Below, piece after piece: positions 12,564-39,359 of a stretch of DNA of 64,000 bases. A program made the position numbers and the translations under genes. The DNA is from an uncultured Candidatus Saccharibacteria bacterium (lineage in GTDB: Bacteria; Patescibacteriota; Minisyncoccia; Phycocordibacterales; UBA9973). Location: contig CAYYSI010000002.1 in assembly GCA_964474435.1 (NCBI GenBank), forward strand, positions 92,260 to 156,259, given 5' to 3'. The first letter of the stretch is position 1; every line of letters begins with the position of its first letter. The notes under the pieces were generated by a model. It was not told where the DNA came from and made no database searches. It saw nothing but the letters and a program-made list of their open reading frames with translations.

Positions 12564-13274
12564 ATGCATACCCTTTGGAATACCTTTATCTACAACCCGA
12601 TTTACAACGCACTCATATTCATCGCCCAGCACGTCACACTCCAAGACGTCGGGCTTGCGGTGATCCTCGTCACCATCCTTATCCGTTTCATCCTCCTCCC
12701 TCTTTCCAAGAAAAGTATTGTTGGGCAGTACAAAATGCGCGCACTTGAACCAAAGATTAATGCAATCAAGGCACAGGGTCTCTCAAAAGAAGAAGAATCA
12801 AAGGCAACCTTTGCACTCTACAAGACTGAAAAGGTCAATCCATTTTCTGGATGTCTCTATCTCCTCATCCAGCTCCCCATCCTTTTTGCGCTCTATTTTG
12901 TTTTCCGAAATGGTGTTGATCAGCCGACACATCTCTACTTGTTTTTGAGTACAGAAGGACTCAAGAATACACTTCTCGGGCTCGTCGATATCACCAAACC
13001 ATTCATCCCCTTTGCAATCCTTGCGGGTCTCACCCAAGGTATCCAAGCGTTCCTCACACCAAAGCCGCCTGTCAGTACTGATAATGGGTTCCAAGGTCAA
13101 TTTGCAAAGAGTATGGCAGTCCAGACCAAATACATCTTGCCACTCATTATTATATTTATTGCAACCAAGCTTGCTGCAGCAGTTGCACTCTATTGGTCTA
13201 TCACCAACATCTTTTCCATCGTTCAAGAGTTGTATTTCCGCAAGCAAATTGCTCGCAAAGCTACTATCAGTTAA
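12564..13274 (+). CDS. yidC: membrane protein insertase YidC (short form)
   Basis: Multi-TM Oxa1/YidC core; ATG at 12564 chosen just after the yidD stop. Confidence 0.8.
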   Translation: MHTLWNTFIYNPIYNALIFIAQHVTLQDVGLAVILVTILIRFILLPLSKKSIVGQYKMRALEPKINAIKAQGLSKEEESKATFALYKTEKVNPFSGCLYLLIQLPILFALYFVFRNGVDQPTHLYLFLSTEGLKNTLLGLVDITKPFIPFAILAGLTQGIQAFLTPKPPVSTDNGFQGQFAKSMAVQTKYILPLIIIFIATKLAAAVALYWSITNIFSIVQELYFRKQIARKATIS

Positions 13275-14530
13275 TAGCTATATTGCCAAAGGATACCTGT
13301 TTGTTTGTCGATGAAATACGCGACTCCAAGTGTTTCATCTACAGATAGGTTCGTCATGTCATATGAAGTGCCACTATTGTCGTACAGTGTGTCGTAGAGC
13401 GCAGCACTCGTGTAGATGCGATAGAGTTGGTCTGAGAATGTCACTGTGCCTTGGTACCACGCATCAGGATATGCTGCCTCTGGGACACTTGTGTTCCCTG
13501 CACAGATGAGGTCTTCGCTTTTGAGCCATGTGCATTTCTCGGGCAGTATTGTGAGACTGAGATTGCGAGTCGTATTCGTTTTAGTATTCAAAAGTTTGGT
13601 GACAAAGCTGTTGCCAGAGTTTTGTGAATAGATGATGTAGGTACCACTTGGACTGACTGACGCAGTGAGGCCGTTGATGTTGCCGAGCACACGACGAAGT
13701 TTCTTCTCAGTGGTATCAACTCGATACAGGAATCCTGGCACTTGTGCACTTGCCTTGGTTTGCAAGTATATACTTTTTGCTGTTGGCCACGAGAGTATCC
13801 ATTCGCGAAACGGGGTGCGGAGAATATCAATCTTTTTAGTATTGACTGTGTTTGTCACTGATAGGAGTGCACCATTTGTCTCATTGGTGATACGTGCGAC
13901 CTGTGCGCCATCAGGAGATGGAGCAAGGGCCGAGATGTTGTCCGAGAAGTACAATCCTTCTTTTTGAGTACGGGTGTTATCTGGGTTTGGCGGAGGAACT
14001 GGGACACTATAGGTCGCAATCGTGCGCTGGTCTGCGCGCAAGAATCGAAGGAGTGCTGTTGCAAACTTGTCTCCAAATGAGGCTTCGTAAATGTTTGGAA
14101 TATACACGTTTGAAATCTGGAGCGGCATAGAGCTATCCTCGATCTCGTACACGTAGCCGTTGCTGCGTGCAACATAGCGCAGGAGGTGTTTCGTCGTGAT
14201 CTGTGTCGTTGGTTTAGATTTGGGAATGCTCGGATCGGCAGGAATAGTGGTTGTGACCGTTGCAGTGTATGCACTAAAACCTGCGACTGCATCAGGACTC
14301 AGCTGTTTGAATGGAGATGCGATAGGGGTGGTATTTTCGGCAACAGTCTCAGCTCCTGTTGGGAGAGTGCCGGGAATGTTGGGGGTTGTATTTGCGCCTA
14401 TTGGGAAAAAGGCACCAAAGTCAGTAACTGCTGGTATACCATCCTCTGTCTGATGACGCTTGGCATAGATGTACCACCCAACACTCGCAACAACGAGGAG
14501 TCCGAGAATAATAAAAAAGATTTTCCGCAT
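13271..14530 (-). CDS. membrane-anchored hypothetical protein with beta-propeller-like (SPDG/SPSG) repeats
   Basis: N-terminal TM anchor; repeated SPDGAQV / SPSGTYIIY motifs reminiscent of TolB/PD40; the most distal gene of the T4SS-like array. Confidence 0.45.
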   Translation of the reverse strand: MRKIFFIILGLLVVASVGWYIYAKRHQTEDGIPAVTDFGAFFPIGANTTPNIPGTLPTGAETVAENTTPIASPFKQLSPDAVAGFSAYTATVTTTIPADPSIPKSKPTTQITTKHLLRYVARSNGYVYEIEDSSMPLQISNVYIPNIYEASFGDKFATALLRFLRADQRTIATYSVPVPPPNPDNTRTQKEGLYFSDNISALAPSPDGAQVARITNETNGALLSVTNTVNTKKIDILRTPFREWILSWPTAKSIYLQTKASAQVPGFLYRVDTTEKKLRRVLGNINGLTASVSPSGTYIIYSQNSGNSFVTKLLNTKTNTTRNLSLTILPEKCTWLKSEDLICAGNTSVPEAAYPDAWYQGTVTFSDQLYRIYTSAALYDTLYDNSGTSYDMTNLSVDETLGVAYFIDKQTGILWQYSY

Positions 14531-14550
14531 GAGAGTATTGTACTACAATA

Positions 14551-16269
14551 TTAGTTTCCAATAACCACTTGTGTTCCGGTTTTTATATATGGAAGCAGTG
14601 CTTCTATATCAGCGTTTTTCATTCGAATACACCCATTTGTTCCACTAAGGGTTCCGTTTTTATTACCGTGCATACCAATCCCTCTCTCACCATTTTGCAT
14701 AGGACTTAGGTGAAAGAAAGCAGCTCCCATGTTTGAACCTTGGGCATTAAATACTGGTTGCCCAGGTTTTTTTGGTGTTCTTATGTCTATAATTTTCCAA
14801 GTACCGATTGGTGTTTTTTTATCTCCTGTTTGTGCTTGTCCAGGGTTTGCAAAGCCATTGATTCCATGTCCAACATCAATAATATTATTTGTATCTACCG
14901 CCGAGCCTTTTTTAAGTCCAATAACCATCCTGTTATTTGTATATATTTTGAAATATGAAATTTCCCACCCTTCATTTTTAATTTTATTAACAACATTTGT
15001 TACCGCAGGAGAAATAGATGCATCTTTTGAATAAGTAACTTTTCCTGATTTGAAATCAGCTTCTTTGGAATCGTCACCAGCATCAGGATAATCAACAATT
15101 TCTACCCCAACCTCCACACTCGCAACATTGATACTATTCGAAACCAATTTTGGATTAATAGTATTGAGTATGAGGTATGCAGAGAGTGCTAAAAGCAATC
15201 CCATAAGTGCAGTAAAGAAACCACTTTTGGCACTTGCCTTGAGGAATGGCACATCAGTGACGAGGTATTGATAGCCTTCGTACATAAGTCGGAGTACAAG
15301 TACAACTGCCGTGAGGCCAATCAATGTTTTGAACGCAAAATTGAGGAAACCATTGATGTCACAGATTGCGTCTTGGGGAACTTTTTTATCAAGCTTTTGT
15401 TGTGCACAAAGATCAGGATCCATAAGCACTGATAGTCCTGGCCATGGCGCAAGCAGGTGGTAGCTTTTTGCATCGAACTCAGTCTGCTCTTTGACACTTC
15501 CCGCAGGGGTGTATCCAGTAGAACTATTGAACCTATCATCCTTTGTTGCGAGGACAGTGTTCCCTGTTTTGATGGTCTGGCGCATATAGTAGAGCGTATT
15601 TGGAGTAAGTCCGCCAAGATTCCAGTAGTATGAACCATCATCGTTTACACCTTCTGTCGACCCATTTGTTGTTGTGTGTGCGATAGCGAGTGCTGCCCCA
15701 GTGAAACCTCCTGATTGTGATGTGTAGAGTAGTTCAACTTTTAGGCCATTAATATAAGGATATTTTGTTATATCGATTTTTCCAGAAATAACCGCTTTCT
15801 GTCCATCACTACTTGGAGTTACTTCTTTTGGCCATGTATAAAAATTTGCTGTCCCCCCGGTTCCTGTGATCGCAACAGCAGTATCAGATGCATTTACTGG
15901 AGCCCCAATATTTGTAGATATTGTTCCGATAGTCGGAGCCTGTGGCAGCTTCATCGCATGCAAATAGTATGTGTAGTTATTTTTGTATGCACCGCCACTT
16001 ATCTGCCACACTACTTTGCCACCAACTGCTTTCTTGCGCATGTCAGTTGCGAATGTTGGAGAAGCGCTGTTAGGTGCAGGAACAGGTGCTGCATTGTCGT
16101 AGAGCTCAAACTCACTGACAGTGTCGGTCACACCCGTCATTGTCACAGTGATCTCTGTCGCAGACACGACTGCAGTGAGAGGATAGAGCGAAGCAACCAC
16201 AGATTTTGTTGGGATCAAAAAAAGAATGAGCGCGATGGGAATGAAGAGTGATTTAAAAAATGAATTCAT
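14551..16269 (-). CDS. secreted protein with central two-TM pilin-like hairpin and C-terminal L,D-transpeptidase (YkuD) domain
   Basis: Signal peptide MNSFFKSLFIPIALILFLIPTKSVVA (ATG at 16269). A hydrophobic hairpin (LIGLTAVVLVLRLMY...FFTALMGLLLALSAYLILNTI) resembles VirB2/TrbC pilins. The C-terminus has the YkuD motif GIGMHG...GCIRM. Confidence 0.55.
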   Translation of the reverse strand: MNSFFKSLFIPIALILFLIPTKSVVASLYPLTAVVSATEITVTMTGVTDTVSEFELYDNAAPVPAPNSASPTFATDMRKKAVGGKVVWQISGGAYKNNYTYYLHAMKLPQAPTIGTISTNIGAPVNASDTAVAITGTGGTANFYTWPKEVTPSSDGQKAVISGKIDITKYPYINGLKVELLYTSQSGGFTGAALAIAHTTTNGSTEGVNDDGSYYWNLGGLTPNTLYYMRQTIKTGNTVLATKDDRFNSSTGYTPAGSVKEQTEFDAKSYHLLAPWPGLSVLMDPDLCAQQKLDKKVPQDAICDINGFLNFAFKTLIGLTAVVLVLRLMYEGYQYLVTDVPFLKASAKSGFFTALMGLLLALSAYLILNTINPKLVSNSINVASVEVGVEIVDYPDAGDDSKEADFKSGKVTYSKDASISPAVTNVVNKIKNEGWEISYFKIYTNNRMVIGLKKGSAVDTNNIIDVGHGINGFANPGQAQTGDKKTPIGTWKIIDIRTPKKPGQPVFNAQGSNMGAAFFHLSPMQNGERGIGMHGNKNGTLSGTNGCIRMKNADIEALLPYIKTGTQVVIGN

Positions 16270-16270
16270 A

Positions 16271-17218
16271 TTAGTTAAATAGAAGCGTAAACTGTTTCTC
16301 AATATGCTGCAAGCTGTACGCGACAGTCGTGATCGCAAGATTGATGGTGCTTTGTACGGCAGTATTTGGACGAGAGAGACCTATTTCGTTTGCACGACTT
16401 GGGGTTACGGTTTGTCCATCGATGGTCATTGCAAATGAGAGATTGTTGAGAATGCCCTGTGGTGCGCTAAAGTAGTATGGTTCGAAATGAAGCACAATAC
16501 CCGTTTGCGTAAATGGGATAGTTTTGTTGTAGCCATGGGCATAGTCAACAAAACCTTCCCTGTTTTGATACGCAACAAGCGATGGAGACTGGAGTGCGGT
16601 CACTCGAGTAAGTCCTGTACCTGCAAAGACGCCGCCAGAGAGCGACACCTCAGTAGTTTCTTGGGGAGTGAATTCGTTTTGTGTAACAAGAAGGCTTGAT
16701 TTGTTGTATCCAGATTGTTCGGGTACGGCAGAGCCGTTGCGTGACCAGGTATAGGTGACTCCGCTTGGAGCACTTGCCGAAGGAATCGCCGTAAATCGCA
16801 GGAGTCCATTGACGGGCAAGAGCGCCTTCCCTTTATAAAATGGCGGCGTATACGCATCTGCTGCTTCCCAGAGTACGTCCACACTTGCTGGGCGAAGTAC
16901 GACACTCGTGCTCGCATTTTCGATACCTGAACCACTTGCATTCATAGAGACCACACCTGTTGCACCACTTGCAGGAGCAATGACACTAACCGTCGTTCTC
17001 CCTACACCTCGTGCAATGACGACGTTGTTGTACGTCCATGTGATAGAGGCTTGGCTGAGGTCTGCACTATAGCTTGATGCAGTGAGTGTTACAGTACTCC
17101 CTGGTTCGGGGTTGTTGGGTATGACATCAATAGAGATATCTGTACTAATTTGTGCTCGTGCGACATGAGGAATGAGCAGTGCTCCAACAATGAGCATGAT
17201 CGACCATATATATTTCAT
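16271..17218 (-). CDS. secreted hypothetical protein (signal peptide, Ig-like repeat composition)
   Basis: Cleavable signal peptide ending HVARAQ and a S/T-rich beta-rich sequence; tightly packed within the T4SS-like array. Confidence 0.45.
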   Translation of the reverse strand: MKYIWSIMLIVGALLIPHVARAQISTDISIDVIPNNPEPGSTVTLTASSYSADLSQASITWTYNNVVIARGVGRTTVSVIAPASGATGVVSMNASGSGIENASTSVVLRPASVDVLWEAADAYTPPFYKGKALLPVNGLLRFTAIPSASAPSGVTYTWSRNGSAVPEQSGYNKSSLLVTQNEFTPQETTEVSLSGGVFAGTGLTRVTALQSPSLVAYQNREGFVDYAHGYNKTIPFTQTGIVLHFEPYYFSAPQGILNNLSFAMTIDGQTVTPSRANEIGLSRPNTAVQSTINLAITTVAYSLQHIEKQFTLLFN

Positions 17219-17260: not shown

Positions 17261-19069
17261 CTATCGGTTCTGTTCGCTAAATTCTTTCTTTGCGGCACGT
17301 ATGGAGATGACTTGGGATGGGTCAGATGTGATGATCTGGTCTTCGGTATATGATGCAATGATTTTGATCGCGACATGTTTGAGTCCGGCAAAGAAGATGC
17401 CCTCTCCGACACCACTCTCGAGCAAGAGAAACTTCTCTTCATCAGTGAGGTTGAATGTTTTCTGGAGTACATCCATAGTTGAGGGAGATTGTTTGAGCAA
17501 AAGTTGGATCGATGAGTTGGTGACGATTGGTACGCCATACGGGCTCTTCATGAAGTCCCCCACGTCTTGGGTGATAGTACAAAGTCCGAGATAGTATTTA
17601 CGGCCTCGCTTTGCGATTGAGTACAGGAACGATGCAGTGTCGTCTGACTTCATCATCCACCACGCCTCATCCACCACAAGTAGACGCTTCTTGAGTTCTT
17701 TGCGCACTGCATTCCAAATGAAGTGCGTGACGATGTACATCGCCGCTGGCTTGAGATCGTCTTCCATGTCGCGCACAGAGAACACGACGAACTTTTTGTT
17801 GATGTCGACGTTTGTTGGTTGGTTGATAAATGTTGCCCATGAGCCGTGTGTGTATTTGGTGAGACGCTGAAGTATGGACTCAGTCCCCTCCATACCAGAG
17901 AGCACCATTTCAAAGTCAGAAAGGAGTGGCGGTTCGATTGTTGCGAAGTCGCTTTCGGGTGTGATGTCTTTCAATGAATACGTTTCGGTAATCGCACGGT
18001 CGATGATCGAGTCTTCTTCAGGACTTAGTCCCCCAAGCATGATACGAAAGAGTCCGACAAGGTTGATGATGTTGGAGCGAAGTACATCTGCTGGGGACTC
18101 GTCCACACGAGGTATTGGCAGGTCAAATGGATTGATGTGGTTGTCAGACGAAAGTGAGATATTGAAATATCGTCCCCCGATTGCTTCTGCGAGGTATTCG
18201 TATTCGCGCTCTGGGTCAATGACGATCACGTCGGTATCAAACATCAGCGTTCGGATAATTTCAAGTTTAGTCGCATAACTTTTTCCGGCACCAGACTTCG
18301 CAAAGATGATGGAGTTGTAGTTCTCAAGTGAAAAGCGATCAAAGATCACAAGGGATGAGTTGTGACGGTTCACACCATAGAGAATGCCAGTGTCCCCTGT
18401 CAGGTCAAATGATACGAAGGGAAACATACTCGATATTGGTTCAGAGTTGAGCTTCTGAGTGATACCAAGCTTGTCAGTCCCAAGTGGTACGACGGTTTTG
18501 AACCCATCTTCTTCTTGAAAGAGCGCCGGTTTGATGTAGATCATCTTGGATTCGAGCATGCTCTTGATCTCGCTCTCGGTGCGGAAGAGATCATTTTCAT
18601 TGTCGGCATAGATCGAAATATAAAAGCCGATGTTAAACATCTTTTCTTGGGCTTGAGTGAGATTGTCACGGAGTTCTTCGAGGTCTTGGTACGCAGTATC
18701 GAGCATTGGGTCGCGCACAAGTCCCTTTTGCTGGCGGACGATGATCTGACTTTCTACCTCTGCAATTTTCTTTTGGAAATGTTTGAGGAGCTCAGAGGTC
18801 TCGATCGGGTTGACGTAGATTGCCACATCAAAGATCTTGTCGAGGTTGATGATTGGCGTGAACCAGTTGTCGGTGAGGTATCGTGGGTATGCGATCACAA
18901 AGAATGTGCGCACGGTCTTGTCACCAATGCGCATGGACTTGGGCGTGATCTCGATTGCAGACGGCGCGATCTTGTCTGCGAGCTCCATGGTCGCCCATTC
19001 ATACACTTCTTCGGGAAGAATAGGGAGTTTTTTATTTACTTTTTTGTCGTTCGATCCAAAGAGTGCCAT
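17261..19069 (-). CDS. VirB4/TraC/TrbE-family type IV secretion ATPase
   Basis: Walker A FAKSGAGKSY; Walker B LLVVDEAWWMM (the DEAW signature of VirB4/TraC AAA_10); 602 aa. Confidence 0.7.
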   Translation of the reverse strand: MALFGSNDKKVNKKLPILPEEVYEWATMELADKIAPSAIEITPKSMRIGDKTVRTFFVIAYPRYLTDNWFTPIINLDKIFDVAIYVNPIETSELLKHFQKKIAEVESQIIVRQQKGLVRDPMLDTAYQDLEELRDNLTQAQEKMFNIGFYISIYADNENDLFRTESEIKSMLESKMIYIKPALFQEEDGFKTVVPLGTDKLGITQKLNSEPISSMFPFVSFDLTGDTGILYGVNRHNSSLVIFDRFSLENYNSIIFAKSGAGKSYATKLEIIRTLMFDTDVIVIDPEREYEYLAEAIGGRYFNISLSSDNHINPFDLPIPRVDESPADVLRSNIINLVGLFRIMLGGLSPEEDSIIDRAITETYSLKDITPESDFATIEPPLLSDFEMVLSGMEGTESILQRLTKYTHGSWATFINQPTNVDINKKFVVFSVRDMEDDLKPAAMYIVTHFIWNAVRKELKKRLLVVDEAWWMMKSDDTASFLYSIAKRGRKYYLGLCTITQDVGDFMKSPYGVPIVTNSSIQLLLKQSPSTMDVLQKTFNLTDEEKFLLLESGVGEGIFFAGLKHVAIKIIASYTEDQIITSDPSQVISIRAAKKEFSEQNR

Positions 19070-19089: not shown

Positions 19090-19725
19090 CTATTGTCCTT
19101 TTGCTTGTGTTGTGTTCTCTCCAGGGTTGAATGTTTTGTACAAAAGCTCAATCACTTCTTCGGTGCCTAGTTGTGCAACACGCAGCCCCACACGCGACAG
19201 TCCTTGTTCAACGACACTCACGCGCTCTTCGAGCTGACTTCGCTGTTCTTCGAAATCACTCACGGTCTGTGTTGCTGTGCTTGTCTTATTAAAAAATGAA
19301 AACACTTTTGCAATACCCTTTTGCTGACTGAGGATTGGTGGGATATATGGGATCACGACGAAAAAGGACTTGCGCATGATGTTGACCTGATCGGTGAAAC
19401 TCTGAATGAACTGAATGTATTCGCGTGTTTGCACTTGAAGCAATGGCTCTGTCTGCTCCTTGAGGCGGTTTTGCAGCGTCAAAATGTAGGGCCTGATGTC
19501 ATAGCGGCGACTCTGAATGACAATTTCTATAGGGAAATCGAGGGTGTTGAGGAAGTTTTGGAACTGCATGAGAGTTGCACGCTGTTCATCATAGGATTTG
19601 AGTGAGAGGTTGATGGATGATACAAGGACGACCATGCAGAGTGAGCCATCTTTTTGTACGACGATACCATCGCGTACTTCTTTGACCGGGACGAATTGTT
19701 GGGCTGGTGTGCCAATGGTAGCCAT
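19090..19725 (-). CDS. hypothetical protein immediately upstream of VirB4-like ATPase (possible detached VirB4 N-terminal domain)
   Basis: 211 aa, soluble; 20-nt gap to the ATPase gene in a different frame, and its own start context precedes the ATPase ATG. Confidence 0.4.
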   Translation of the reverse strand: MATIGTPAQQFVPVKEVRDGIVVQKDGSLCMVVLVSSINLSLKSYDEQRATLMQFQNFLNTLDFPIEIVIQSRRYDIRPYILTLQNRLKEQTEPLLQVQTREYIQFIQSFTDQVNIMRKSFFVVIPYIPPILSQQKGIAKVFSFFNKTSTATQTVSDFEEQRSQLEERVSVVEQGLSRVGLRVAQLGTEEVIELLYKTFNPGENTTQAKGQ

Positions 19726-19727
19726 AG

Positions 19728-20135
19728 TTATTTTTGAGTATTGTTCGGATCAATAACGTCGAGACTCCATGACAAAGTCTTGAGTTTGCTCTCGGTTAGT
19801 GTAGCACGATCGTTGCTTGCCTGAGCTTCAGGAACATCACGCTTCCCTGGTACAGGTGCTTGTTTGCGCCAGAGATACAGGCGTGATTTGGAATAAAACC
19901 TGATGAATGACTGGAGCACATTGATAAACGGCTTGTCATTGTATTTGAAAAACGTAAGTGCGAGCGCAAGCGCGGCAAACGCAGGTGCGACAATGAGCGC
20001 GACGTAGATTGGGAGTATTTTGAATGAGAGATACACAAAGCCTGCTCCCCCGGCAAGGTATGCAAACTCTCGGAACGTAAATGGTCCGAATACTTTGTCC
20101 TCGATGTCGATAAATTGGGGAACCTTGAACTGCAT
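19728..20135 (-). CDS. VirB3/PrgI-like small two-TM protein
   Basis: 135 aa; two TM helices (LAGGAGFVYLSFKILPIYVALIVAPAFAALALALTFF); positioned directly upstream of the VirB4-like genes, as in Gram-positive T4SS loci. Confidence 0.4.
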   Translation of the reverse strand: MQFKVPQFIDIEDKVFGPFTFREFAYLAGGAGFVYLSFKILPIYVALIVAPAFAALALALTFFKYNDKPFINVLQSFIRFYSKSRLYLWRKQAPVPGKRDVPEAQASNDRATLTESKLKTLSWSLDVIDPNNTQK

Positions 20136-20169: not shown

Positions 20170-20703
20170 TTATTTTTCGGGGATTTCGCGATACGGATCG
20201 ATCGATTTGATGCCACTTGGTGCAGTTGATGGAGCCGATGTTGTATTGAGTGAAGTATTTTCACCATACGAACGCTTGGTTGGAGCAAGAGTCGATGGAG
20301 CGGTCATAGTTTGGTTGAGACGAGTAAATGAGTTATTTCCAGAAGCCTCTGCTTCAGACAACTCAACCTCTTCGTTTTGTGCATATCCATCTATAACTAA
20401 ATCAAAGATTTTATCAGTCACATTGTTTTTAACCCAATTTATAATTATCTGATTCATCTCCGGTGAAGTACTAATGGATCGGATACGATTAACCAGAGTT
20501 TCTTCTGTTTCTACTTGTGCTATATAACCATATAGAGTTCCTCGAAATAGTGATATCGTCTCTGATGTTAGTCGTTGTTCTTGGCAGAATTCAGTAAACG
20601 CTTTTATAAAAGAATCACTATAAATGTAATCCTTCACTTCCTCAGGAATTTTATTGAAAGACTCTTCTATTTTTTGCAAATTTTCATCCATATTATTTTC
20701 CAC
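20170..20703 (-). CDS. acidic hypothetical protein
   Basis: Track start is GTG at 20703 (alternative ATG at 20691); overlaps the upstream gene stop by 11 nt. Confidence 0.4.
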   Translation of the reverse strand: MENNMDENLQKIEESFNKIPEEVKDYIYSDSFIKAFTEFCQEQRLTSETISLFRGTLYGYIAQVETEETLVNRIRSISTSPEMNQIIINWVKNNVTDKIFDLVIDGYAQNEEVELSEAEASGNNSFTRLNQTMTAPSTLAPTKRSYGENTSLNTTSAPSTAPSGIKSIDPYREIPEK

Positions 20704-23700
20704 TCTCCTTCTCTTTATTTTCGCGCTTTTCCTTTATTTTTTCCAACTCATTTTCTTTCTTTGCAAGCTCACTCTCAAGACGACTCTTTGTTTCATCGTT
20801 AAGTTTGTTAAGGTCTTCTCTATGTTTTTCTTTCTGCATATAAAGATCATTTCTATCTGCCTCGAGATCTTCGGCTTCTTTTATTTTTCCTGCGCGTCTT
20901 GCTATACCTGCTCTATTATCTAAGTCGCGAATATTATTTTCCATGACATCAGTTTTTGCTCTGAGACCTCTCTTGTACATCTCCATAGTTTCTTCCTTGT
21001 CTTTTTCGCTGTCATATGAACCTTTTGTTTTGCCTTTGTATTTCTCAAAGGCTTTTTCGCCAGCGTTTGCTCGATCAATCATTTGATCAAAGAATGCACT
21101 AAAGCCACTTGTTACTGTGTTAAGTTGTTTGTTTAGCTCTTCAAGTTTTTTGTCGATTATTTTCTTTTCGTTTTCAATTCGATCCTCTTTTGATCCAAAC
21201 TTACCTTTCTCTCTTTGATCTTTAGCATCATCAACAAATTTCTTTGCAACGGAAACATCACTCTTATTCTTTCTACTCTGATCATAGAGAAATGCCCCTA
21301 AAGCGCCAGTAGTAACTCCCGCAGCGGCAAAGCCACCAGCCCCAAGTGCTGTCCCTACGCCACCCGCTGTACCAACCGCTGCAAGAGGTTTTCCAGCTTG
21401 TTGACCAAATGTTTGCCCTGCAGCAATAGTCTTTGCAAACTCAACGCGCAATGCTTGAGTGAGCTGTTTGTTGGTTTCGACTGTACCGTGTTCTGTCTTG
21501 AGCGCTTGAACTTTTTTAGCAACATTATCTTCATATGTTGCATCTTTAAATTTATTGGTTTTCTTCATCTCAGCGATTTCTGCTGCAGTCTTTCCTTCTG
21601 CCTTGAGTTCTTCAAGTCGTTTTGACTCCGCTTCTTTGTGTGCAATATCACTGAGTTTCTTGTTCCAGAAATCCTTCGCATCAGTATCTTTGAGATCTGT
21701 TTTGAGAGATTCAATCTTCTTTTTAGCATCATCCTTCTCTTTCTTTTCAACAGCTTTCATACCTCCTTTTGTTGCATCTTGTCCAAGGTTGAATAATCCA
21801 CTCACTTTGTCGTTGAGCTTAACTCCCATTTGTTTGCTTGCAGTATCGCTTATTTTACTGAATGCAGATGTCTTTCTAAAATCGAAACTACCAGTCTGTG
21901 CCTTGTCATTGAATCCAAGACGAAGGCTTGCGATTCTGCCACTAATACCTCCCTCTGCCTTTTGTTGCATCAAGTCAGCGCGTTTGTTTTCACTAAGTTT
22001 AAGTGCGCCGGCAAGGCGTGTACCAGCAAATGCTGCACCACCAGTTGCAACGCCAAGCGCTGCCCCACCAATAAATCCCGTAGCTTTTTCTGCATAACCC
22101 TGGATAAGTTTTCCTGCTTCACCTGCATAGTCTTCAGCAATTTTCACACCTTTCTTAATCATCATGTAGACAATAAGCATTGGAATAGCGATATAAATAA
22201 CAGTTTCCAAGAAATTTGATCCCGAGTTTACGTTGGTAAACCCAGTAATGAAATCCGAATCAATAAATGAATAAATGATGTATAAGAAAAAGACAAATAT
22301 AGGAGCAAGCAAGGCATACATCGTAGTATCGCTGAGCCACTTGTCCCATGAAAATTCTTTTATCTTACTTACAATCGGCATATTACCTTTGCTGAGAAAG
22401 GCAAAGGGTGAAAATATCATTGCAATGTAGAGGCCGATGACGCGACCAAGAAAGAAAAATGCGGTCTTCCAAAACATCATAGCGACAGCAAAGAGGATTG
22501 TCGCAGCAATCAAGCTCACAATAATATAATATGTCGCGTAGTCGTTTCTATTGAGAGGATTAGTTTTTTCACTATCACTCGAAGTATCATCAAATGTTAC
22601 TGTTCCGTTTACCCCCTTGGTACTTCCTGTTGCATTTTCTACATTCAAAACTTGTGTCGAGAATATTTTTTGTGGATTGAAAGAGGATACTATTTTTTCA
22701 GAGAGTGGTTTGTAGTTGCCAACACCTACCTTGAGATTGGTGATAGATCCATCTGCTGCTTTTACACACTTACCCTCACAGACTTCGACTGAGTTATAAA
22801 AGACTCGAGCGGTGACATTGGAGATATCGATGATTACACGTGTCGCAAAGAGACTAAAGTTGATCAATAGTGCATTGAGGATCAGGTTTGGAAGCACCTG
22901 CTTCATGTTCGACTTGTTACTAAAGACCGTCATGAGCCCTGTGTACACCAGAATTATAATGAAGAAAATATTGGAAATATCTCGCACAAGCTGCCATCCA
23001 CGAACTGCAAAGTCGGCACGGTATGATGCGTCGTTAAGCGAATACCCTAAAAAGAAATCAAAGAGCATACCAAAGAGCCCTGCAAACCAACTGATCGGAA
23101 CATAAATAGCGTAATATACGAGCCATGCAATACAGCCGACAAAGGATCCTTCCCCAGGGCCGGCACCGTTGAGGATGTGGCAGTTTGGAAGTGTCGATGA
23201 CGGTGAATCAACTAAGTTGACTGGAGTAACAGGAGTATCTGTTTGGGAAAGTGCGGCCGCATCAGTTGCTGGCATTTGAAACTGCTCTGATTGAGCAATC
23301 TTGAAGTAGGGTTTTCCGTCACCACAGAGATTGTTGAAACTATGAATACTTGATGTCGTAGTATTTGAATCAAGTGTCTGGCCGTTAGTGTTATCTCCGC
23401 AATACCACAGATCTGCTTGGTATTTTGTTGGATCACCAATCTTAAACTTATTTGCCTTTGTGATATTTGTTCCAAGTGTTCCAGTGCTTGATAATGGTGC
23501 AAGGTCTGAGATTTTAAATTGAACATTAAATTTTGAGTACTGATCATCAAGCGCACTTAAAATACCATTAACTCCTTGTGCTCGATAATGATAGATCTTT
23601 GTTGTTGGTTCAGTTTCTGTGGGGGCCGTACAAACACCATTGCTACAGTACGGAGTACCGTCTGCTTTTTGATCGATATTAGTAGGGGCAGTGCTATATG

Positions 23701-24187
23701 GTACAACAGAAAAAAGACAAGCATTTTCGTCTACTGCACCAGTTGAAGCGCTCACATCACACAAGCGTAGAATAAAAACTTTTGATGTAGCGGTAGGGGC
23801 AAAATCTTTAATATGATCCCAATGCCATTTTTTATTTTGATCGTTGGTAATCTTAAAGCTTCCTTGGAAATTGAATTTGAAATAACTAAGTGCCTGTGCA
23901 GGCGTTGTTGATTGAGGAGTTGTTGTAGGGGTACCTGGTGTTTGAGTAAGTACAGAGCCGGAGGGTGCATTCACAGTAACCGCTTGTTGCATTGTCAATT
24001 TTAATGCAGGGTCGGTTCCGTCAAACAGATTCACATACTCATTAAATACACCTACTTGCGCAAACGCCGGCATCACATTCCCTACCACCACAAACAAAAA
24101 GACAAGCGTTAAGAGCGCTGTCTTTGAGATGCGTTTGCATGATCGCAGTATTGCAATACTAATCCTTCGAACGGAGCGTGCTTTCAC
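20693..24187 (-). CDS. giant VirB6/TrbL-like polytopic membrane protein with N-terminal surface domain and C-terminal charged coiled-coil tail
   Basis: GTG start with signal/TM segment. About 330 aa extracellular region, then 8 or more TM helices with TrbL/VirB6-like spacing. A roughly 450-aa K/E/A-rich low-complexity tail follows. Confidence 0.5.
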   Translation of the reverse strand: MKARSVRRISIAILRSCKRISKTALLTLVFLFVVVGNVMPAFAQVGVFNEYVNLFDGTDPALKLTMQQAVTVNAPSGSVLTQTPGTPTTTPQSTTPAQALSYFKFNFQGSFKITNDQNKKWHWDHIKDFAPTATSKVFILRLCDVSASTGAVDENACLFSVVPYSTAPTNIDQKADGTPYCSNGVCTAPTETEPTTKIYHYRAQGVNGILSALDDQYSKFNVQFKISDLAPLSSTGTLGTNITKANKFKIGDPTKYQADLWYCGDNTNGQTLDSNTTTSSIHSFNNLCGDGKPYFKIAQSEQFQMPATDAAALSQTDTPVTPVNLVDSPSSTLPNCHILNGAGPGEGSFVGCIAWLVYYAIYVPISWFAGLFGMLFDFFLGYSLNDASYRADFAVRGWQLVRDISNIFFIIILVYTGLMTVFSNKSNMKQVLPNLILNALLINFSLFATRVIIDISNVTARVFYNSVEVCEGKCVKAADGSITNLKVGVGNYKPLSEKIVSSFNPQKIFSTQVLNVENATGSTKGVNGTVTFDDTSSDSEKTNPLNRNDYATYYIIVSLIAATILFAVAMMFWKTAFFFLGRVIGLYIAMIFSPFAFLSKGNMPIVSKIKEFSWDKWLSDTTMYALLAPIFVFFLYIIYSFIDSDFITGFTNVNSGSNFLETVIYIAIPMLIVYMMIKKGVKIAEDYAGEAGKLIQGYAEKATGFIGGAALGVATGGAAFAGTRLAGALKLSENKRADLMQQKAEGGISGRIASLRLGFNDKAQTGSFDFRKTSAFSKISDTASKQMGVKLNDKVSGLFNLGQDATKGGMKAVEKKEKDDAKKKIESLKTDLKDTDAKDFWNKKLSDIAHKEAESKRLEELKAEGKTAAEIAEMKKTNKFKDATYEDNVAKKVQALKTEHGTVETNKQLTQALRVEFAKTIAAGQTFGQQAGKPLAAVGTAGGVGTALGAGGFAAAGVTTGALGAFLYDQSRKNKSDVSVAKKFVDDAKDQREKGKFGSKEDRIENEKKIIDKKLEELNKQLNTVTSGFSAFFDQMIDRANAGEKAFEKYKGKTKGSYDSEKDKEETMEMYKRGLRAKTDVMENNIRDLDNRAGIARRAGKIKEAEDLEADRNDLYMQKEKHREDLNKLNDETKSRLESELAKKENELEKIKEKRENKEKESGK

Positions 24188-24217
24188 GCATATAGTGTAT
24201 CACGCAGAGCGATGTTT

Positions 24218-25162
24218 CTACCACAAATTGAGTCGAAGTGAGCGTTCAAGTGTACGCAATCCGATCGCAGTATTGTTTGGAGTGAGGAAGCTACCACTTG
24301 CATTTGGTCCATCGATACCAATGAAGCCATCATACGGGTTGCCGCCACCGATCGCGGCACAGACTGGGTTGAGGTAGCTACACGCACCGTTGTTTGCGAC
24401 GACTCCCCCGATAAATCCTTGAGCATCTTGGGCAAGGACGTGCCAAAACGGTGTTGGGACGCGAAGTTTGTATTGAGAGTTGGCTGGGATCTGAGCAGTG
24501 CGAGCAACACATCGGTTATACAGACCCGTAATAGTGTCTACTTTTGCCTTGAAGTTGTCGTGGTTGCCTGTTTCTGTGGCAACATCGGCATCAGTGCGGA
24601 GTGTCTGGGATAGTGCATAAAATCTATTTTGGAGTGCTTGGAGCTGAATAAGCTGCTCTGGTGTGAATTCGATATTGAGATCTGCACTGCTGCACTCGGG
24701 CCCTGCGACTGTAGGAGGTACTGATGCGGGGGTTTGGGTTGTAGGGTCAACGGTCGTTGTGGATCCTGGCGCCGTTGTCTCTCCTGGGACACCAGATCCA
24801 GGTGTGCTTCCTGATGATGAGCCATTGGTTCCCGTACCAGAAGTTCCTGTGCCAGAACCTGTGGATGTCGTTGGGGTATAGGCACCACTGCTAAACTGCG
24901 CAACTTGGGTGCCGATTGTTGGGGTGACACTCGTGCCCGGTGTTGCAGAGCTGAGATTGTCATCCACAAAGACTGATGAGAGGCTGCCATCGTTTGGGGT
25001 GAGTCCGGTGCCAGTGTTTGTGTCTCCGCTCAAAAACTGTCTGAATGTTGGTTTTGCAGTACCATTTTTCTCTGCGGTGCGGCGTGAAAAGAGCCATGCT
25101 CCCCCGAGAATGATCGCGAGCACGATGAGAATGATGACAAGGATAGTGATGAATCGTTTCAT
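24218..25162 (-). CDS. N-terminally membrane-anchored protein with S/T/G-rich linker and globular C-terminal domain (VirB8-like candidate)
   Basis: TM anchor ILVIILIVLAIILGG, then a TGTGS-rich linker, then a roughly 170-aa domain. Confidence 0.4.
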   Translation of the reverse strand: MKRFITILVIILIVLAIILGGAWLFSRRTAEKNGTAKPTFRQFLSGDTNTGTGLTPNDGSLSSVFVDDNLSSATPGTSVTPTIGTQVAQFSSGAYTPTTSTGSGTGTSGTGTNGSSSGSTPGSGVPGETTAPGSTTTVDPTTQTPASVPPTVAGPECSSADLNIEFTPEQLIQLQALQNRFYALSQTLRTDADVATETGNHDNFKAKVDTITGLYNRCVARTAQIPANSQYKLRVPTPFWHVLAQDAQGFIGGVVANNGACSYLNPVCAAIGGGNPYDGFIGIDGPNASGSFLTPNNTAIGLRTLERSLRLNLW

Positions 25163-25170
25163 AATGAGTA

Positions 25171-27483
25171 TTATAGATGACTATAGAAATACACGCTCGA
25201 ATCCTCCGATGTTTTAATAAATGGATCCGGAGTTGCAGTGATGTCTTCGAGATGTGACAACCCTGCAGGGATAGGACCTATCTGGTATGCATTGTCGATA
25301 CATGAGAGCTTCACTGGAGTTCCAGCAGCTGCTTGTGCATCGATATAGTCTGCTTTTGCTCGCGCAACAATACGCTCTACTTCTTGGTCAATGGCTATGA
25401 GTTCGGTGAGCGCATCTTGTGTTGTCTGAATGTTGGTATTGTACTGTTCGTTGTATGCAGCGACACCTTGCGCATAGCCGACGAGGTTTCCTGTTTCTTT
25501 GATCGAGTCCTTGATGTCGCCAGTGATGAGTGCTGCATCAGCCGGAGAGGTCGCCGTTGCAAGGAAGGCATTAGTGATTGCTGTTTCGCTATAGAGATCG
25601 TTGTACTTTGATTTCAAAAGCGTCAAGATATCATTGAAATAATATCCCATGAAGTCTGAACCCGTGATGCCGTTGGTTGCATATCGTCGGTCACTGATTT
25701 TCTTGAGACCGAAGTCAACTTTGTCAAAGAGTGACCATCGCACGAGCGCGTATCCTGCAAGTTCTTCGAAGTCACTGGTGTCATTGCCACCGAGTGTTTG
25801 TCCTGGGTCGAGGATATGGTGAATGTAGTCGATCTGGCCATCAACGGTCTTGGTCACTGGCTGCAAACCTTCGAGGAATGTTTGGGTATTTTCATTGAGG
25901 TTATTGTTCCAGGTTGGATTTGGTCCAGGGATACAATAATCGAGCGCGCCGAGTCGAGGAACGAGCGACTTCATGACGTGCTGCGCATCTTGGCTACGAG
26001 TGAGGAAGTTCTTTTGAGTGAGGATCACTGCGCGAAGCTGTTGGGGGCGACTGATATCGAACTCCTGGTTAAATCCACCTGTTGTTGCGTCATATCCAAG
26101 CGGTGTCTGACAGGCAGTTGCGCTTGCAAGTGTCTGGCCATTGGTACCGAGGACGACATTGCTGCCGATCCCCCCGGGTACGGTCGATGCTGCTCTGCCG
26201 CGTCCTGAGCCAGTGATGCCGTCAGTGAGCAAACGATTCATGAGTTGATCAAAGAATGTACCGAGCACTTGGTTGATCTTGTTAGTATTTTCAAGTTGGC
26301 GCACTGTTGAGTTAGTGATACTTGAAACCTGAGCTGAAATAAGAGAGCCAGGAGTTACTGTTTCGTAGCGCAGACACTTTGGAGCTTTTGTTGGAGATGC
26401 TGCTTGAGTCCCTGTTTGGTATCCACCTGTATATGCAGCACACTGTGCTTGATTTGTTGCAGCACCTCCAACGCTGGTGCAGCATGATGCGTAGTTAGTG
26501 GAAATGATCACACTGCAAGATCCTCCTGCAGTTGGGACGCCGTATGTTGTCGATGCTGTAGCTGTTGAAGTAACAGCTGTCTCGTACTCAGCACATTTTT
26601 TCATACTCAAGAATCCCCCGCCTTGCTGAAGTTCATCTTTTACATTTTGTTGTGCAGTGTCGATGATGCTATTGAGTTCGTCTGTTGCATTAAAATATGC
26701 GCCCACAGGATTGTTTTGAGGATTGAGGAATGCATTCCAGCCACCTTTGGTGAAGTCGCTTTGGAAGTCTTGGTATGCTTTGCCTTCAGGTGTATTCATC
26801 GCCTTGTTGAGGAGGCCATCAGAGTATCCGGTTGCCTGCTGTTTGAGTACAGATTTGAGAGCATTGCCAAATATTGGATTACTATTGCCGACATAGGTAT
26901 TGAGATAGCTATCAAGTTTTTCATTTTTAATAGTCTTGAGGTATGAGTCAATATTGCGTACATAAAAGGGGTTGCCACCAAATCCAGTCTTGACCCAGTT
27001 GAGTGTTTTGTCCGAGAGCTTGGAAAGAGCGGTCTTGGCAACGGCATCTGCTGCACCATTGAGACACTGTTCACGTTTTGTTGTTTTTTCAAGCTCTGCC
27101 TGAGATTTCTCCGTTGCGGTCTGTGTAGGCTTGTCCCCCGTTGGCACTGTTTGTGAGGTATTGGTGTTGCTACTCGTACTAGTTTTCTTATTAGTACTGC
27201 TAAAAAGACTCTTTGCCGCATCTGAAATAGCACCGCCGACATTGAGACAGCTCGCAAGAGCACCTCCGATACCGTTGAATGTGATACCACTATATGTATT
27301 ACCACTAAGACCAGAGCCTGTACCTGGAGTGAAGTTGCTTCCACCGATAGATGCAGCACTTGCACAGTTACAGATGTTGCCGCCTGGTGCGACCGATCCA
27401 TCTGAACACAGCGGATCAGCGTGCGCAACCATTGGAGTTGCCAACAGTGCGAGAAGTATGAAACTAAAGAAGGCAGTGCGCAT
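25171..27483 (-). CDS. large secreted Cys-containing hypothetical protein
   Basis: Signal peptide ending VAHA; 770 aa with no recognisable catalytic motif. Confidence 0.45.
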   Translation of the reverse strand: MRTAFFSFILLALLATPMVAHADPLCSDGSVAPGGNICNCASAASIGGSNFTPGTGSGLSGNTYSGITFNGIGGALASCLNVGGAISDAAKSLFSSTNKKTSTSSNTNTSQTVPTGDKPTQTATEKSQAELEKTTKREQCLNGAADAVAKTALSKLSDKTLNWVKTGFGGNPFYVRNIDSYLKTIKNEKLDSYLNTYVGNSNPIFGNALKSVLKQQATGYSDGLLNKAMNTPEGKAYQDFQSDFTKGGWNAFLNPQNNPVGAYFNATDELNSIIDTAQQNVKDELQQGGGFLSMKKCAEYETAVTSTATASTTYGVPTAGGSCSVIISTNYASCCTSVGGAATNQAQCAAYTGGYQTGTQAASPTKAPKCLRYETVTPGSLISAQVSSITNSTVRQLENTNKINQVLGTFFDQLMNRLLTDGITGSGRGRAASTVPGGIGSNVVLGTNGQTLASATACQTPLGYDATTGGFNQEFDISRPQQLRAVILTQKNFLTRSQDAQHVMKSLVPRLGALDYCIPGPNPTWNNNLNENTQTFLEGLQPVTKTVDGQIDYIHHILDPGQTLGGNDTSDFEELAGYALVRWSLFDKVDFGLKKISDRRYATNGITGSDFMGYYFNDILTLLKSKYNDLYSETAITNAFLATATSPADAALITGDIKDSIKETGNLVGYAQGVAAYNEQYNTNIQTTQDALTELIAIDQEVERIVARAKADYIDAQAAAGTPVKLSCIDNAYQIGPIPAGLSHLEDITATPDPFIKTSEDSSVYFYSHL

Positions 27484-27492
27484 GGTTGATGG

Positions 27493-28389
27493 CTATAGTA
27501 TACCGTATGTTGCCAAATAATTGTTCATGTTTACAAGCGACGTGTTGAGTTTGAGGCTATATTTCTTGTATACCGCAACTCCGACGAGGGCTGCAATACT
27601 GTTGTCATTGATTTCAGTCATATAGGTGAGCGATGTTGCGATCCCAGAGAAGCTGTTGACGATGCCAAGGTGGTCTTGGGCAAGTCCGACCGGGACTTTG
27701 ACTCTTGCGAGCTCTTTGGCAAGCTTTTGGTATGTGGTTGCGCTTGCTTTGAGTTGTGGCAGTCCGGTTTGGTCTTCGTTTTGGAGCGCGGTTGCGAGCA
27801 CTTCGATATCGGGGGTGTTTGCATCGTATTTACCAATAATATTGCGCATCGATGTGCGATAGCTGGTGAGGGTGGGGATACTGGTTTGCACGGTCTGGAT
27901 ATCTTTTAGAGTATACGTATTGCTGACCTGTTTGATATCGACTGATGCGGCAAGTTTTGCAGAGATGGCCTGGAGTGTCTGGTCGTCGACTTCGTCAGAT
28001 TGGCCAAGGGCCGCCGTGAGTGTAAAGAGCTCCCGTGCGAGACGGTCGGTGTCGTCTGTTGGTTCAGTGCTCATGCTGTCAGTGATGCCGAGCGCTTTCT
28101 TTTTTGCAGCTATGATTTCTGCATTTGAGGTGCCGTTAGTATAGAGCACAGTCGGATCCAGTCCCCAGAGCTTTTCTTCCCAGTCAGGAATCTTGTTGCC
28201 ATTAGAGTCTTTGCCCACAATGTCCCCCACTGTTTCAGACACAACGACTGCAGACTTTTCTCGTTTAAAGACAAGTCGCTGAAACCATGCCGTTTGTACG
28301 ATGAGCACAACTGCAACAATGCCGATCGCGATTGCGCCACGCTTGATGAACTGCTTACTGGGACGGGAAGATTGTTGTGATAGCTCCAT
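27493..28389 (-). CDS. membrane-anchored hypothetical protein
   Basis: Single N-terminal TM (AIAIGIVAVVLIVQTAWF); 298 aa. Confidence 0.45.
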   Translation of the reverse strand: MELSQQSSRPSKQFIKRGAIAIGIVAVVLIVQTAWFQRLVFKREKSAVVVSETVGDIVGKDSNGNKIPDWEEKLWGLDPTVLYTNGTSNAEIIAAKKKALGITDSMSTEPTDDTDRLARELFTLTAALGQSDEVDDQTLQAISAKLAASVDIKQVSNTYTLKDIQTVQTSIPTLTSYRTSMRNIIGKYDANTPDIEVLATALQNEDQTGLPQLKASATTYQKLAKELARVKVPVGLAQDHLGIVNSFSGIATSLTYMTEINDNSIAALVGVAVYKKYSLKLNTSLVNMNNYLATYGIL

Positions 28390-38277: not shown

Positions 38278-38453
38278 AGTAGAGACATCATAACACACCC
38301 ACTCAAAAAAAGCAAGTGGGGCCTGCGAGGTGAGGAAGAGATGTATTTTTGGAGCACTGTTGAGGCCAGAGGCCGAGTTTGCGGAAAAAATATGTCTCTT
38401 TCGACCCGAAGCAGCATCTATGTCGCACAATATTTTGTTATACTTCTCTGTAT

Positions 38454-39359
38454 ATGGACTTCCCTACTGCAAAACGACAATTCCTCGAGTATATCGAGAT
38501 CGAAAAGGGCCGCTCGCTCAAAACTGTCGAAAATTACGATCACTACCTCTCTCGCTTTGCCACTGACATGAAGGTATCCAAGGTGAAGGATATCACCGAA
38601 GACACACTTCGCGAGTTTCGCCTGCGCCTCAACCGTGCTCCAGGCGTCAAAGTCCGTGGGCAATCTGCTGCAACGATGAAGAAAAACACGCAGAACTACT
38701 ATATGATCGCGCTACGCTCATTCCTCAAATACTGCCGCAAGCGAAACATCGATGCTGTGACGCCGGATGCCATCGAGCTTGCAAAGGTCGGCGCTCGCCA
38801 CCTCGACCTTATATCAACTGACGAACTCAATCGTCTCTTGAAATCCCCTGACACAACGACGCTCAAAGGTTTGCGGGACAAAGCACTTCTTGAGCTCTTT
38901 TTCTCGACAGGCCTTCGTCTTGCCGAGCTTTGCTCGCTCAACAACGACCTCGACCTCTCTCGTGATGAGTTTTCTATACGCGGAAAAGGTGAAAAGGTCC
39001 GTGTGGTGTTCATCTCAGACGATGCACGAGCTGCAATCAAGGCATATCTCAAGGCTCGCAAGGACATGGACGACGCAATGTTCGTCAATATTGCCAAAAA
39101 CAAGATATCTGGCCGCCTCACCCCCCGTTCGATCGAGCGCATCGTGCGTGAATACTCTATAAAGGCTGGAATCTCCAAGAAAGTCACGCCCCACGTCCTT
39201 CGTCACTCGTTTGCGACCAATCTCCTCTCCAATGGCGCCGATATTCGCAGTGTCCAAATGATGCTCGGCCATGCCAACATCGCTACAACCCAGGTCTATA
39301 CACACATTACCGACAAACAACTTCGTGAGGTGCACAAGAAGTTTCATTCGAAAAAGTAA
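38454..39359 (+). CDS. xerD: tyrosine recombinase XerC/XerD family
   Basis: C-terminal catalytic motif HVLRHSFAT...LGHANIATTQVYTH with the catalytic Tyr. Confidence 0.8.
   Translation: MDFPTAKRQFLEYIEIEKGRSLKTVENYDHYLSRFATDMKVSKVKDITEDTLREFRLRLNRAPGVKVRGQSAATMKKNTQNYYMIALRSFLKYCRKRNIDAVTPDAIELAKVGARHLDLISTDELNRLLKSPDTTTLKGLRDKALLELFFSTGLRLAELCSLNNDLDLSRDEFSIRGKGEKVRVVFISDDARAAIKAYLKARKDMDDAMFVNIAKNKISGRLTPRSIERIVREYSIKAGISKKVTPHVLRHSFATNLLSNGADIRSVQMMLGHANIATTQVYTHITDKQLREVHKKFHSKK

Follow-up and report, generated by a model that had tools for sequence, protein, structure and literature searches.

A long, previously unannotated VirB6-like protein with predicted surface and cytoplasmic domains in an origin-proximal type IV secretion locus of Patescibacteria

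We analyzed a 64,000-nucleotide (nt) stretch of DNA (contig CAYYSI010000002.1 of GenBank assembly GCA_964474435.1, positions 92,260 to 156,259 of the forward strand; hereafter the window, numbered from its first letter) from a Paceibacteria/Nomurabacteria-like host, and focused on an open reading frame (ORF) of 1164 codons at 20693..24187 on the minus strand. Our data indicate that its product is very probably the VirB6-type polytopic subunit of a chromosomal, origin-proximal, monoderm-type (MPF-FATA-like) Patescibacteria type IV secretion system (T4SS), to which surface and cytoplasmic domains have been added. The gene is real and conserved, and encodes a previously unannotated, unusually large version of VirB6. 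The locus is the already published Patescibacteria T4SS, and the protein is an extended VirB6 within it. An earlier reading of the window (the original prediction) had proposed that the protein is an extended member of the VirB6/TrbL kind, with its N-terminal domain exported and a long, charged extension at the C-terminus, and this central idea is upheld. The protein divides into the following parts, annotated where relevant with the per-residue confidence (pLDDT, predicted local distance difference test) of an AlphaFold2 model:

24059..24187, minus strand: predicted Sec-type signal peptide, or N-terminal anchor, residues 1-43, from hydropathy, with the same pattern in the homologues shown
23153..24058, minus strand: predicted beta-rich ectodomain, residues 44-345, with a T/S/P-rich linker and co-conserved Cys pairs
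22088..23152, minus strand: VirB6/TrbL-like hydrophobic core, residues 346-700, the most conserved part of the protein
22544..22822, minus strand: large core loop, residues 456-548 (93 residues), with a CxxxC pair (470/474) and a variable S/T/N-rich stretch
22007..22087, minus strand: Gly/Ala-rich, weakly hydrophobic conserved segment, residues 701-727, with G712, G716 and G722 nearly invariant; pLDDT below 50
21392..22006, minus strand: proximal tail, a conserved helical domain, residues 728-932, with motifs QTGSFDxRNT, GG808-809 and YGxVKxxKxLxxAxRxxYAExL
21284..21391, minus strand: uncharged G/A/V/T-rich segment, residues 933-968; pLDDT below 50
20696..21283, minus strand: distal tail, five long K/E-rich helices (27-42 residues each), residues 969-1164, fast-evolving

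We collected 267 homologues at E ≤ 0.001. The top 120 are 900-1340 residues long, are all unnamed or "hypothetical", and carry no precomputed Pfam domain. The same three-part layout is shared by more than 120 homologues and recurs in 37 of the 37 that were aligned, with an N-terminal region of 274-470 residues, a core of 389-423 residues and a tail of 394-512 residues. By column, the core is the best conserved region (0.54-0.77 over residues 361-520 and 561-720) and the N-terminal domain is less so (0.26-0.45); the tail is mixed (0.23-0.49), with a small number of motifs being conspicuously conserved. We also found a short class of proteins of about 700 residues that lack the N-terminal domain and are encoded in clusters whose genes are otherwise orthologous one to one. 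Species-representative genomes yielded 47 loci, all of them in Patescibacteria metagenome-assembled genomes labelled Paceibacterota, Nomurabacteria, Minisyncoccia and, in some cases, Saccharibacteria. An exhaustive HMMER search with a profile of the core retrieved 16,311 representative clusters at E ≤ 0.001, including 1,692 at E ≤ 1e-30, and a tblastn search of the core against 72,556 plasmids gave no match at E ≤ 0.1. One core relative of 712 residues (P0149) is named "O-antigen polymerase" in one source, and is probably a mis-annotated polytopic membrane protein.

The assignment of the core to VirB6 depends on intermediate sequences. A profile built from the core only (A3) retrieves two distant Patescibacteria proteins, P0179 (E 8e-29) and P0183 (E 1.8e-15), which score 27.8 and 27.5 bits against the Pfam TrbL family PF04610 and so exceed its gathering cutoff of 25.9 bits; two further core relatives fall just under that cutoff. 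Profile-profile alignment with hhalign matched the core to P0179 with 99.7% probability and to P0183 with 99.3% probability, and the TrbL stretches of both proteins (residues 208-404 of P0179 and 139-338 of P0183) lie within the aligned regions. Homology to PF04610 members thus runs through intermediate sequences over one and the same region. In addition, the P0183 gene occupies the same position in its own cluster as the VirB6-like gene does in the window. Because the intermediates pass the TrbL cutoff and the gene context is conserved, we assign the core to VirB6: judged by sequence, it belongs to the TrbL/VirB6 superfamily, with an indirect resemblance. The concern raised alongside the original prediction, that the core might turn out unlike TrbL, is answered by this link through P0179 and P0183.

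Direct comparisons weigh against the assignment. The protein itself does not reach the PF04610 gathering threshold, and it gave no Pfam, NCBIfam or PHROG match at E ≤ 0.1. A Pfam scan of 37 family members returned noise, with PF04610 absent from the 25 families listed; only one of the 37 matches TrbL_3, and weakly (E 0.0042). Ten more distant representatives had no Pfam match. Searches of PDB sequences with the full-length profile, the core profile and P0179 found no VirB6 and only coiled-coil noise, the comparison of P0179 with TrwI being non-significant (E 1.4), and a Foldseek search of the full-length model against the PDB gave nothing at E < 0.9.

The gene context supplies the second line of evidence. 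The VirB6-like gene belongs to a cluster of genes that all run in the same direction, no more than 42 nt apart, between ksgA at one end and yidC, dnaA and dnaN at the other. Its neighbors in this cluster are:

24218..28389, minus strand: three conserved upstream genes encoding proteins of 314, 770 and 298 residues, all with a signal or anchor at the N-terminus; co-directional and 8-30 nt apart
20170..20691, minus strand: 173-residue acidic, non-membrane protein, separated from the VirB6-like gene by a 1-nt gap on its downstream side; no family match
19728..20135, minus strand: PrgI family (VirB3-like) protein (PF12666, E 6.1e-10, 39.9 bits against a cutoff of 27)
19090..19725, minus strand: TrsD/TraC-like protein of 211 residues, resembling the N-terminal part of VirB4 (NF045975, E 5.1e-14; NF041427, E 6.4e-6; PF26593 precomputed)
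17261..19069, minus strand: VirB4-like ATPase of the CD1110 (monoderm) family, 602 residues (NF045971, 373.7 bits against 325; PF19044, E 6.3e-25)
13271..17218, minus strand: downstream genes encoding an Ig-like protein of 315 residues, a protein of 595 residues with a YkuD L,D-transpeptidase domain, and an exported protein of 419 residues

The order VirB6-like gene, 173-residue protein, PrgI/VirB3, TrsD and VirB4 is identical in four other loci, among them that of the TrbL-positive P0183, and orthologues of the three upstream genes lie at equivalent positions in relatives. The VirB6-like gene is therefore encoded beside virB3 and virB4 in a T4SS cluster, as expected of a virB6 gene. The cluster also shows the features by which passages of PMC12102498 recognize the Patescibacteria MPF-FATA-like type: a monoderm VirB4, TrsD, PrgI/VirB3, a chromosomal location near dnaA, and no relaxase. 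Our scan of about 40 ORFs, a part of those in the window, detected no relaxase.

This context bears on a rival reading in which the gene encodes a polytopic membrane protein unrelated to VirB6, for instance a transporter or glycan polymerase, and only happens to sit next to T4SS genes. The missing direct matches would fit such a protein. We consider it very improbable, given the above-threshold TrbL link through relatives with its hhalign support, a place directly upstream of PrgI, TrsD and VirB4 that is strict in every locus examined, and the failure of any transporter or polymerase family to match. Still less credible, to the point of being negligible, is the possibility that the long ORF is an artefact, in which a frameshift or assembly error fuses a VirB6 gene with a separate downstream gene, or that its A-rich 3' third is a slippage-prone contingency region. 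What speaks for either is the existence of shorter relatives of about 700 residues and the low 5-mer complexity of the last 600 nt of the gene (0.68-0.70, against a window mean of 0.816 ± 0.034). However, gene calls in two independent Logan public assemblies give exactly this product, with all 1164 residues the same, all 37 aligned homologues carry their tails in one frame, and even the short class keeps the proximal tail, so that we reject a frameshift or fusion as the origin of the tail, a danger the original prediction had itself raised: the tail is part of one conserved ORF. The original prediction had also suggested that low complexity at 20700-21600 could promote slippage. The DNA there is compositionally biased, with the same 5-mer complexity of 0.68-0.70, but Tandem Repeats Finder detected no array in this interval and the longest homopolymer is 6 nt; slippage and phase variation are thus rejected, and only the compositional bias stands.

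The ORF listing and the two assemblies agree with the 1164-residue length and GTG start first proposed for the gene, whose stop codon occupies 20693-20695. This GTG is the most upstream start possible, and the next ATG, GTG or TTG does not occur before codon 31. The N-terminal sequence that it gives (MKARSVRR...), followed by a K/R-rich stretch, a hydrophobic stretch and the motif AFA|Q, has counterparts in homologues, such as MEAHSVRR and VKALSFRR, and 7 of the 40 homologues shown also begin with GTG. In the 25 nt upstream of the gene (24188-24212), a TACACT hexamer ends 6 nt before the start codon. Similar -10-like TANNNT hexamers (often TATACT or TACAAT) end 4-12 nt before the start codon of 20 of 32 genes in the window; the background rate is 10.8% (binomial p ~3e-12, over the 30 nt upstream of the 32 gene starts). 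Shine-Dalgarno-like cores precede only 3 of the 32. Together, the hexamers and the scarcity of Shine-Dalgarno cores suggest that mRNAs in the window are mostly leaderless, with promoters before individual genes inside the T4SS cluster, in agreement with the GTG start of the VirB6-like gene.

At its N-terminus, the protein has the build of a signal peptide: a K/R-rich n-region (28.7 K+R per 100 residues), a hydrophobic h-region and the AFA|Q motif, at which it would be cleaved. The AlphaFold2 model of the full-length protein (mean pLDDT 78.5; predicted template modelling score 0.46) folds residues ~100-310 into a nine-strand beta-rich domain with pLDDT above 90, preceded by the T/S/P-rich linker. 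Cysteines are co-conserved in the pairs 143/157, 263/288 and 336/352, the last of which is found in 67 of 67 sequences. A local jackhmmer analysis of domain occurrence among the 267 collected relatives detected the N-terminal domain in 151, essentially the long class only. BLAST comparisons of the N-terminal domain, the 456-548 loop and the tail with the cluster neighbors revealed no relationship. These roughly 300 residues probably form an exported, disulfide-bonded domain without recognizable relatives, as far as signal, cysteines and composition can tell.

Within the core, hydropathy identified seven hydrophobic segments between residues 350 and 680, in addition to the one signal-type segment at the N-terminus; the corresponding helices span residues ~353-381, 403-425, 434-455, 552-572, 575-599, 622-645 and 660-680. 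The "8 or more" transmembrane (TM) helices of the original prediction therefore have to be revised to seven hydrophobic helices plus the signal peptide, and in solved VirB6 just two of the predicted TM helices are actually in the membrane. The loop between the third and fourth helices carries a conserved GGYKPLSEKIVSSFNPQKIF motif. Beyond the last helix, the Gly/Ala-rich segment 701-727 may associate with the membrane.

The tail (residues 730-1164, 435 residues) contains 17% K, 11% A and 10% E, has a net charge of +14, and lacks both Pro and Cys. AlphaFold2 models it as 14 helices of 9-42 residues with breaks between them. In the proximal part these form a set of short helices (pLDDT 83-91 over residues 810-930), and this part is recognizable in 228 of the 267 relatives, the short class included, which marks it as an integral conserved domain of the family. 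The distal part, modelled with pLDDT up to 95, is detectable in only 24 of the 267. Between the two lies the uncharged G/A/T-rich stretch 933-968, the "GT-rich segment" correctly noticed at the outset, whose length varies from 10 to 45 residues among homologues. Earlier descriptions of the tail as a coiled coil hold in part: it is predicted to be helical, and it is K/E-rich and Cys-free, but by a crude heptad score a clear heptad-like pattern occurs only at residues 995-1042, the proximal 200 residues are short helices, and the continuous heptads over most of the tail that define a canonical two-stranded coiled coil are absent. In the model, "coiled coil" at best describes the distal 200 residues. 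The repeated KxxEK and AxxK motifs once ascribed to the tail occur at chance levels (KxxEK 3 times against 1.2 expected, z 1.6; AxxK 8 times against 7.9 expected) and self-BLAST found no internal repeat, so true sequence repeats are rejected. The tail is enriched in oppositely charged residues at a spacing of three (E..K and K..E; z ~3.4), a common feature of charged helices.

To place these parts relative to the membrane, we compared their composition with that of other proteins sampled from the window. The N-terminal domain and the 456-548 loop resemble the sampled exported proteins and hold all of the protein's cysteines. The tail, at 35-50% K+R+D+E and 20-25% S+T+N+G+P, differs from the sampled exported proteins (11-20% and 33-50%, respectively) and is more charged than every sampled cytoplasmic protein. 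The signal peptide, the co-conserved Cys pairs and the exported-type composition together make it very likely that the N-terminal domain is outside the cell. The loop, with its Cys pair and exported-type composition, is probably external as well, like loop P2 of Agrobacterium VirB6. If each of the seven hydrophobic segments crossed the membrane, the loop would instead lie inside; we disfavor such a seven-span topology for the loop's paired cysteines and exported-type composition. The most consistent model would have the N-terminal domain outside, five membrane spans, the 456-548 loop outside and the C-terminus inside. AlphaFold2 agrees with five spans in predicting a single 45-residue helix at 547-591. 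This layout mirrors that of Agrobacterium VirB6, whose C-terminus reporter fusions are said to have placed in the cytoplasm.

An alternative within the same family is that the tail is external, on the cell surface or extending toward the host as a pentameric helical stalk, with the 933-968 hairpin inserting into a membrane and the whole replacing the missing VirB5 or stalk. A surface-exposed position has reportedly been suggested for the C-terminal extensions of Rickettsiales VirB6. Of the TM helices predicted for VirB6, the R388 structure has just two (alpha1 and alpha2) in the membrane and the others in a periplasmic dome (PMC9259494), and DotA is built alike. Since most predicted TM helices of VirB6 thus lie outside the membrane, hydropathy cannot give the side of the tail, which counts against our model. 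By analogy with an R388-like layout, the stretch after the last hydrophobic helix would begin on the outer side, and the tail does hold a 35-residue uncharged hydrophobic segment between long helices. We nevertheless judge an external tail unlikely. The tail is charge-rich and has no cysteine, in contrast to the exported parts of the same protein with their paired cysteines; K/R-rich residues directly follow the last hydrophobic helix, in keeping with the positive-inside rule; and the G/A segment is only about 10 residues long in several homologues and missing altogether in the short class. The reported cytoplasmic C-terminus of Agrobacterium VirB6 points the same way. The cytoplasmic tail of the original prediction is thus favored by composition, from which we infer its location.

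We compared the protein with known VirB6-type subunits. It shares with R388 TrwI (PDB 7o3v) and Agrobacterium tumefaciens VirB6 a polytopic hydrophobic helical core and a gene beside virB3 and virB4. VirB6 and DotA have been described as TMI and TMII plus HH1-HH5, a total equal to the seven hydrophobic helices here, and loop P2 of Agrobacterium VirB6 has its counterpart in the large 456-548 loop. Compared with TrwI and Agrobacterium VirB6, however, the protein is three to four times longer and too divergent for a direct Pfam match, with an added signal peptide, an ectodomain of 300 residues and a helical tail of 435 residues, in a monoderm host where no VirB5, VirB7, VirB9 or VirB10 partners were detected. 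DotA of the Legionella Dot/Icm system (PDB 9ngy) has its extra domain inserted in the core and not at the N-terminus, lacks a long charged C-terminal tail, and belongs to a diderm type IVB system. PrgH (pCF10), TraL (pIP501), Orf15 (Tn916), TcpH (pCW3) and ConG (ICEBs1) belong to the same T4SS class and share the order VirB6-like, PrgI, VirB4. TcpH and ConG are also large (~800 residues), with hydrophilic C-terminal regions.

"Extended VirB6" proteins are defined by five or more hydrophobic helices and large central or C-proximal hydrophilic domains, whose function is not known (PMC12857230). With seven hydrophobic helices, a central loop of 93 residues and a C-terminal hydrophilic region of 435 residues, the protein fits this description. 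The Rickettsiales RvhB6 and Anaplasma VirB6 paralogues likewise combine at least five hydrophobic helices with a long C-proximal hydrophilic domain; we detected no sequence relationship to them outside the core. In contrast to their paralogue arrays, the gene here is single-copy, and its product has an exported N-terminal domain and a non-repetitive tail; the system is of the monoderm type, chromosomal and beside oriC. The closest comparison is with the Patescibacteria T4SS itself. According to passages of Quinonero-Coronel et al. 2025 (PMC12102498), the Paceibacteria T4SS is akin to monoderm conjugation systems, usually lacks a relaxase and is often near the replication origin; those passages concern the same phylum, the same VirB4, TrsD, PrgI-VirB3 and VirB6 cluster, and the same location by dnaA, dnaN and ksgA. 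They also report 2,272 TrsD homologues and only 480 VirB6 homologues, ascribing the gaps to extreme divergence. The passages searched in that paper make no mention of a coiled coil or C-terminal extension of VirB6.

From these data we propose how the protein may work. A Sec signal peptide would direct the N-terminus outward, where the beta-rich, probably disulfide-bonded domain of about 300 residues would stay at the surface of the cell, anchored by the first membrane helix. The seven hydrophobic helices would adopt the VirB6 fold and, by analogy with R388 TrwI and Legionella DotA, could form a pentameric platform that docks VirB3 (PrgI) and the VirB4 ATPase. The Cys-containing 456-548 loop would face outward, and the conserved helical domain, followed by the variable, highly charged one, would extend into the cytoplasm. 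There, the tail would most plausibly contact VirB4, TrsD or the 173-residue acidic protein, or recruit substrate. The 173-residue protein, which every relative examined encodes at this position, may be such a partner of the tail.

Several observations concern the neighboring genes. The 173-residue protein shares its N-terminus and a C-terminal DPYRE motif with a 258-residue counterpart in the short class, and BLAST finds no match between them. VirB4 function appears to be split, with the TrsD/TraC-like protein representing the N-terminal part and the 602-residue ATPase matching its model from position ~183; this arrangement is kept in all relatives examined. The cell-wall enzyme encoded downstream of virB4 varies, being YkuD in the window, Peptidase_M15_4 in one related locus (L003) and an amidase/NlpC-P60 protein in another (L004). 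Within an otherwise fixed cluster, it is apparently the peptidoglycan-remodelling module that is swapped. For the 595-residue ORF of this module (14551-16338, minus strand), the listed TTG start overlaps the upstream gene by 68 nt, and the true start is probably further downstream. No coupling protein adjoins the cluster; a VirD4/TraG-type coupling-protein-like ORF of 901 residues (57244-59949, minus strand; PF02534, E 2.8e-6; PF10412, E 4.5e-6; TraG-D_C, E 1.6e-5) lies about 33 kb away.

Elsewhere in the window, two adjacent large proteins (48536-50809 and 50834-52474, plus strand) contain Peptidase_S74, a domain that acts as an intramolecular chaperone in endosialidase and tail-fibre proteins, and are followed by a CarboxypepD_reg protein (52386-54608, plus strand); they may serve as surface fibres. 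In a lower-GC stretch at 39-43 kb lies an XerC/D-like tyrosine recombinase (38379-39359, plus strand) that belongs to the phage-integrase family.

Our results constitute an annotation and architecture finding inside a known system and imply no new mechanism. The system has been reported as essential for epibiotic growth in Saccharibacteria (Wang et al. 2023, PMC10633639), with passages of PMC12102498 stating essentiality gene by gene for virB6, PrgI and TrsD. With the Patescibacteria T4SS, such a machine was for the first time reported as essential to its owner's growth; what this system carries and by which route it reaches the host are not known (PMC10633639, PMC12857230). One idea, to which we give little credence, is that VirB6 builds the external part of the machine, with the N-terminal beta-domain, and possibly the helical tail and its uncharged hairpin, projecting from a pentameric dome to reach or insert into the host envelope. 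If this is true, an external VirB6 would replace the VirB5 stalk, adhesins and outer-membrane core that are lacking in the minimal T4SS of these ultra-small surface-dwelling bacteria. On our preferred reading of a VirB6-type subunit with surface and cytoplasmic additions, the window provides a concrete Paceibacteria example of the VirB6 genes that standard models mostly miss in this phylum, and the core profile, with its 16,311 matching representative clusters, could fill this gap in annotation. The exported N-terminal domain and the conserved cytoplasmic-type helical domain are candidates for host contact and for ATPase or substrate docking in this minimal machine.

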